Under the pieces are notes generated by a model that did no database searches, was not told the DNA's origin, and worked only from the letters and a program-made list of their open reading frames with translations. From contig CH464492.1 in the NCBI GenBank assembly GCA_000002445.1, positions 222,309-286,308 of the forward strand: a stretch of DNA of 64,000 bases, given 5' to 3'. This DNA comes from Trypanosoma brucei (lineage: Eukaryota). How positions within the stretch are numbered: the first letter of the stretch is position 1; every line of letters starts with the position of its first letter. The translations under genes and the position numbers were made by a program. This document shows, piece after piece, positions 55,920 through 56,310 of the stretch.

Positions 55920-56310
55920 TGTCCGCAGCACTCTCATTATAATATTCGTATATACACACACTCTCACAACACTCTCTTATTATTATTATTATTATTATTA
56001 TTATTATTATTATTATTATTATTATTATTATTATTATTATTATTATTATTATTATTATTATTATTATTATTATTATTATTATTATTATTATTATTATTAT
56101 TATTATTATTATTATTATTATTATTATTATTATTATTATTATTATTATTATTATTATTATTATTATTATTATTATTATTATTATTATTATTATTATTATT
56201 ATTATTATTATTATTATTATTATTATTATTATTATTATTATTATTATTATTATTATTATTATTATTATTATTATTATTATTATTATTATTATTATTATTA
56301 TTATTATCAC
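55920..56310 (-). repeat. 70-bp repeat with an extreme (TTA)n expansion
   Basis: cactctcattataatattcgtatatacacacactctcacaacactctc followed by the pure TTA tract. Confidence 0.85.
55977..56306. repeat. Perfect (TTA)~110 microsatellite, ~330 bp, uninterrupted
   Basis: Five complete 60-nt lines of tattattatt... plus flanks, with no interruption seen. Confidence 0.95.

Follow-up and report, generated by a model that had tools for sequence, protein, structure and literature searches.

An extended (TAA)n tract at a 70-bp repeat in a Trypanosoma brucei VSG array

A run of 110 uninterrupted TTA triplets was found in a 64-kb window (the whole stretch of DNA analysed, 64,000 nt). The run is the triplet region of one 70-bp (76-bp) repeat of the array type that is canonical in all other respects, a reading to which a probability of about 0.75 is assigned. 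It is an extreme example of a type of repeat first described in 1984 and not a new kind of element, and is an expected outlier of a slippery motif. The window is a subtelomeric VSG array of the Trypanosoma brucei group, as judged from VSG domains on both sides of the tract and from nearest database proteins that are T. brucei VSGs (best identity 84% and 97% for two queries; ≤84% for the ORF at 52648-53910), and the locus is silent. Read on the minus strand, the tract follows an A-type VSG pseudogene, a C-terminal fragment and a 3′ UTR, and is followed by the repeat core, a spacer and a VSG_B ORF.

57387-58839, minus strand: A-type VSG pseudogene, split over two frames (58444-58839 and 57387-58373), C-terminal domain present, from Pfam
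~56565-56950, minus strand: degenerate VSG C-terminal coding fragment, ending in ...SSSLPVNKKLALSMAADLVSL / ...KKLALSMAADLVSL and broken by stops
56308-56564, minus strand: 3′ UTR remnant of the VSG 3′ fragment, with the TGATATATTTTAACA element at 56457-56471, ending in AAAAGTGA
55977-56307, minus strand: expanded triplet-repeat region of one 70-bp repeat, from Tandem Repeats Finder (TRF), direct scan, shuffles and the stability profile
55921-55976, minus strand: canonical GT-rich/AT-rich 70-bp-repeat core (GAGAGTGTTGTGAG..TATATACGAATATTATAATGAGAGTGCTG), from an exact 17-mer match and alignment with 12 other cores
53911-55920, minus strand: spacer of 2.0 kb between the 70-bp core and the downstream VSG
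52648-53910, minus strand: B-type VSG ORF (420 aa; Pfam VSG_B, 1.7e-43) comprising signal peptide, N-terminal domain and truncated C-terminal domain

The triplet tract and its host repeat

TRF delimits the tract at 55977-56307, with a period of 3, 110.3 copies, 100% matches, 0% indels and a score of 662. Direct scanning counts 110 exact TTA units at 55977-56306, within a maximal period-3 run of 331 nt (55977-56307). The plus strand reads TTA, and the minus strand, the sense strand for the VSGs, reads (TAA)110. On the plus strand the run is flanked by ...CACAACACTCTC on one side and TCACTTTTACGG on the other. A search of the window for (TTA)12 gave 99 matches, every one of them within the tract (0 expected from 100 dinucleotide shuffles), and the A+T content of the tract is 100% over 331 nt, the next longest pure A+T run in the window being 44 nt. 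The direct scan found no N bases anywhere in the window. The uninterrupted run of about 110 TTA units that had been noticed in a preliminary description is thus borne out, in position and in purity, by TRF, the scan and the shuffles. Two further readings of the tract were rejected. The 149-aa poly-Ile and 135-aa poly-Leu "ORFs" that it opens are products of the repeat itself and not coding sequence, and a structured RNA was discarded as no Rfam matches were obtained in 55000-57500 at E up to 1.

On the minus strand, (TAA)110 is followed directly by GAGAGTGTTGTGAGAGTGTGTGTATATACGAATATTATAATGAGAGTGCTG and abuts GAGAGTG, so that, in the VSG sense, the core is directly preceded by the TAA-rich triplets. 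The core at 55921-55976 carries the conserved series GAGAGTGTTGTGAG ... TATATACGAATATTATAAT ... AGAG. It matches 12 other aligned copies at every invariant column and differs from them only in the length of the GT tract (2-4 nt) and in a few tail bases, which upholds the earlier claim that the tract is embedded in a 70-bp repeat. With up to 2 mismatches allowed, 20 occurrences of the 17-mer TATACGAATATTATAAT were counted in the window, where 0.01 would be expected; the one at 55936-55952 on the minus strand is among the exact matches. The repeat unit measures 387 nt (55921-56307) and lies outside the usual unit length of ~70-77 bp, with the excess wholly within the triplet region. As a variable AT-rich length is accepted in the 70-bp-repeat literature (PMC6292569), the unit is regarded as an extreme variant and is not excluded from the family.

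The 5′ end of the tract is likewise of a recurrent form. Its junction, AAAGTGA(TAA)n within the sequence AAAAGTGA, is also found at the copy at 5475-5524. The VSG 3′ UTR 14-mer TGATATATTTTAACA (56457-56471, minus strand) is located ~147-148 nt before the first TAA of the tract, and in the cassette at 24.3 kb the same 14-mer (24461-24475) is located 146 nt before the triplet region of that cassette. The upstream flank of the tract aligns with the UTR-to-triplet flank at 24286-24484 up to the first TAA. The triplet region is thus bounded by a canonical junction at either end, and all of the extra length arose inside it.

A core-anchored scan of the window recognised 19 copies of the 70-bp repeat, the tract copy included. 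The triplet regions of the other 18 have a median of 8.5 triplets (range 1-15, with a maximum of 15 contiguous in one phase) and are frequently interrupted by TGA, TAG and TTA; the longest pure TAA run among them is 9 units, as in the copy with (TAA)9 at 9261-9287. The range of (TAA)3-12 previously given for typical copies is about right on these counts, and the tract exceeds every pure run nearby roughly 10-fold. Longer triplet stretches, though interrupted ones, are present in two adjacent copies at 49926-50164, for which TRF reports 58 periods with a 77% match spanning both. This pair may be what a long tract looks like at an intermediate stage or after decay. It also forms the second least stable duplex segment in the window.

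Neighbouring VSG genes and other repeats in the window

The gene preceded by the tract-bearing repeat is the B-type VSG at 52648-53910; it shares the strand of the repeat, and its start lies 2,010 nt beyond the core in the downstream direction. Array VSGs are normally preceded by a lone 70-bp repeat ~1-2 kb away, and 1-3 copies have been reported beside ~90% of VSGs (PMC6237402). Further VSG_B matches were obtained with Pfam for an ORF at 60843-61934 and for others elsewhere in the window. Approximately 0.8 kb after the truncated VSG_B ORF, and with no 70-bp repeat between, is a 470-codon ORF (50419-51831, minus strand) that ends in a typical VSG GPI-signal tail (...SNSFIVNKAPLWLAFLILAYHF); Pfam assigned it to none of the VSG families at E up to 0.01. 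The plus strand of the window is strongly T-rich (22,673 T and 15,415 A), which fits most of the VSG cassettes being on the minus strand.

On the other side of the tract are a VSG 3′ fragment and an A-type VSG pseudogene, according to Pfam and to 3′-end matches, in support of the earlier placing of the tract next to a VSG and its 3′ fragment. The segment at 56541-56620 has matches at 34822, 37406 and 40823, all in other VSG 3′ ends. The A-type pseudogene has a 3′ UTR 14-mer of its own at 57322-57336 on the minus strand. Derivation of the 3′ fragment by duplication of this neighbour was considered and rejected, the sequence common to the two being the 20-nt 3′ UTR element only.

Within the spacer, positions 54130-55400 (~1.2 kb) recur at 72-80% identity at four other sites in the window. 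ORF relics in this recurrent sequence gave no Pfam matches and no homologues.

7544-8734: spacer recurrence, 72-80% identity
11119-11975: spacer recurrence, 72-80% identity
29865-31013: spacer recurrence, 72-80% identity
49043-49393: spacer recurrence, 72-80% identity

The first two of these sites are in opposite orientations and enclose a tandem array of 11-12 70-bp repeats at 9261-10214, which is on the plus strand and includes the only plus-oriented copies in the window. The array is followed by ingi-like non-LTR retrotransposon ORFs (12085-17102), and the region looks like a head-to-head inversion or a retroelement junction.

12085-15300: ORF predicting an endonuclease and a reverse transcriptase
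15798-17102: zinc-finger ORF

A microsatellite expansion of a different kind is present in the copy at 37151-37240 (minus strand), in which the GT-rich core contains ~13 TG units, detected by TRF as (CA)13.5 at 37172-37198. The triplet region of the same copy is (TAA)4(TTA)4, a 32-nt all-A+T near-palindrome at 37209-37240.

Precedents, length and origin of the tract

The tract has the features of the T. brucei 70-bp (76-bp) repeat, namely a conserved core, TAA-rich triplets 5′ of that core on the VSG sense strand, and a position ~2 kb upstream of a VSG in the single copy that is typical of array VSGs. It differs in a unit of 387 nt as against ~76 nt, and in 110 pure TAA triplets where most triplet regions are interrupted. 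Tracts of similar kind are on record. The title of Campbell, van Bree and Boothroyd (1984, NAR 12:2759) describes (TAA)90 in the barren region 5′ of a VSG gene, and that of Aline et al. (1985, NAR 13:3161) describes (TAA)n flanking intrachromosomal VSG genes. Compared by these titles, the motif, the order of length, the association with 70/76-bp repeats and the location 5′ of a VSG are shared, and the run of at least 90 consecutive TAA units 5′ of a VSG gene is matched by the 110 found here. However, the (TAA)90 of 1984 is placed by its title between tandem 76-bp repeats, whereas the present tract has one core on its 3′ side and a VSG 3′ UTR on its 5′ side. These precedents, which the preliminary description did not mention, lower the novelty of the tract.

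Long pure trinucleotide runs, presumably made by slippage, are also characteristic of the disease-type triplets (CAG/CTG, CGG/CCG and GAA/TTC). Unlike those, the tract has no predicted hairpin (MFE 0 on both strands) and is not homopurine/homopyrimidine, so that no triplex is expected, and it lies between genes and has no known transcription.

The length and perfect purity of the tract might instead have been produced by the assembly or the consensus, through collapse, expansion or polishing of low-complexity reads. All-A+T sequence of low complexity is a classic assembly problem, and no independent copy of the locus was found among proteins, contigs or DNA. Exact-protein look-ups with the three ORFs neighbouring the tract returned no matching contigs, none of the nine long ORFs of the window had its exact sequence in a collection of 15 billion proteins, in which the source strain or assembly thus appears to be missing, and protein homology searches with the window ORFs returned VSG proteins only, without contigs. 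The 70-bp core had no matches in the metagenome and prokaryote-genome collections. Against an artefact are the lack of Ns, the canonical junctions, the expected order and spacing of the cassette, and a triplet region being expected at exactly the position of the tract; a long pure (TAA)90 was also cloned and sequenced directly in 1984, as far as the title of that report conveys. An error of length in the assembly is a live but minor rival and is considered unlikely, because position and junctions are exactly as expected of a real triplet region. The length estimate of the assembly at this tract warrants caution.

Polymerase slippage is also not the only route to a real tract of this length. 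Unequal recombination or gene conversion between triplet regions, or the collapse of a multi-copy array, could have generated it, and both multi-copy arrays (9261-10214) and paired repeats whose triplet regions are long (49926-50164) are present in the window; by its title, the (TAA)90 of Campbell et al. was itself flanked by tandem repeats. However, such exchanges would import the TGA, TAG and TTA interruptions of other regions, of which there are none in 110 units, and no remnant of a core is present on the 5′ side of the tract. This route is therefore judged improbable. With canonical junctions, no imported interruption and no 5′ core remnant, the triplet region of one array 70-bp repeat is inferred to have expanded in place, probably by replication slippage. 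The all-A+T, non-hairpin-forming motif would be the substrate for slippage, and unequal sister-chromatid exchange would be a variant of the same process.

The purity of the tract indicates that turnover by slippage outpaces substitution, and at 110 units changes in length would be expected to be much faster than point mutation, which would keep the tract pure. Purity alone does not date the expansion. Of the recent expansion by replication slippage that had been proposed, expansion inside the triplet region is retained, given the canonical junctions and the aligned flank, but its recency, which was deduced from purity, is not. Length polymorphism would be expected of the tract. AAT/TAA tracts are not universally hyper-unstable, since (AAT)24 in E. 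coli underwent no detectable expansion or contraction (PMC3000339).

Duplex stability and the role of the triplets

No other 300-bp duplex in the window is as unstable as the tract, which has a nearest-neighbour free energy of -0.82 kcal/mol per step compared with a mean of -1.31 (SD 0.117), a departure of ~4 SD. It thus has the low duplex stability over at least 100 bp that is expected of a DNA-unwinding element. The next least stable segments in the window are also 70-bp repeats. No hairpin was predicted for either strand when 150 nt of each was folded as single-stranded DNA (MFE 0 kcal/mol), and all 200 shuffles fold at least as well as the tract, which sets it apart from the class of expandable triplets that form stable intrastrand hairpins. 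A cruciform is not expected, as the sequence is not an inverted repeat, and H-DNA is not expected, as there is no homopurine-homopyrimidine mirror symmetry; G runs are absent too. Hairpin or cruciform forms of non-B DNA were accordingly rejected. Non-B DNA had been anticipated at this site in more general terms, and of that expectation easy unwinding survives, while hairpin, cruciform, triplex and G4 do not, given an MFE of 0 and a sequence with none of the corresponding features. From the calculated stabilities, unwinding, or slipped strands that are not stabilised, would be the plausible non-B states that remain.

The low stability calculated for the tract fits, by analogy, the behaviour of TTA.TAA described as "non-H bonded" in supercoiled plasmids (Ohshima, Kang, Larson and Wells 1996, JBC 271:16784, as summarised in PMC5422504 and PMC6292569). 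The motif is the same, and here it has the lowest computed duplex stability in the window. According to those summaries, the earlier observations were made in plasmids, in vitro and in E. coli, whereas the present tract lies in the chromatin of a silent array and its stability is a computed one. A 331-bp segment that melts exceptionally easily would be the physical consequence of the expansion, and it could unwind under negative supercoiling.

It had been suggested that the tract is a fragile or hyper-recombinogenic site, and the triplets of 70-bp repeats had been called established sites of recombination initiation in VSG switching. The latter statement is too strong. Published work on breaks and recombination relates to expression sites, and its results conflict. 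One review finds the evidence on the importance of 70-bp repeats "strikingly contradictory" (PMC5422504), genome-wide break mapping gave "no clear evidence" of reads inside the BES1 70-bp repeats (PMC10691351), and Hovel-Miner et al. (2016) found that 70-bp repeats act in donor selection by homology, with the triplet repeats falling outside their data. Donor 70-bp repeats are not needed for the formation of mosaics (PMC13233330). Stalling of replication by (TAA)n instability, with breaks as the outcome, is a published hypothesis (PMC3467770).

If the tract were itself a functional hot spot, be it a hyper-recombinogenic or fragile site or a DNA-unwinding element or origin, it would promote array rearrangement or make the downstream VSG a more frequent donor. 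Such a role would be in keeping with the lowest duplex stability in the window over 331 bp of pure A+T, with the non-H-bonded TTA.TAA of supercoiled plasmids (Ohshima 1996, in the summaries cited above), with the replication stalling proposed in reviews (PMC3467770), and with the VSG 3′ fragment next to the tract, which is a recombination scar. However, no hairpin, cruciform, triplex or G4 potential was found, and VSG fragments are common across the window without long tracts. The array is silent, and switching was not triggered when an inactive expression site was broken (PMC5422504); break mapping of the 70-bp repeats gave no clear signal even where the expression site was active (PMC10691351). 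A hot spot at this locus is accordingly held to be doubtful. As the locus is in a silent array, any fragility of the tract would affect the evolution of the array and would not initiate switching. A more specific form, in which the tract is a natural supercoil-sensitive unwinding element that serves as a replication-stalling or fragile site or as a dormant origin, with a length that varies between clones and tunes rearrangement or donor use, is speculative and has little probability attached to it.

The reading preferred here, an expanded triplet region of an ordinary array repeat, calls for no such role. The giant tract itself would most likely be a neutral by-product, neutrality being an assumption. 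The element as a whole would have the function of any array 70-bp repeat, offering homology on the upstream side and delimiting duplicative gene conversion of the VSG that follows, and would mark the 5′ boundary of a silent VSG cassette in the subtelomeric array.

The role of the triplet component of 70-bp repeats is explicitly still open in the field. With a pure 110-unit tract, unique flanks and a location in a silent array, the locus is a convenient natural test of that role, and direct comparison is possible with ordinary copies of 5-15 triplets a few kb away with respect to polymorphism, fork stalling, unwinding and breaks. Were the tract an unwinding element after all, it would serve as a built-in reporter for an idea now 40 years old, in which the triplets of the repeat, and not the core, are the destabilising component.
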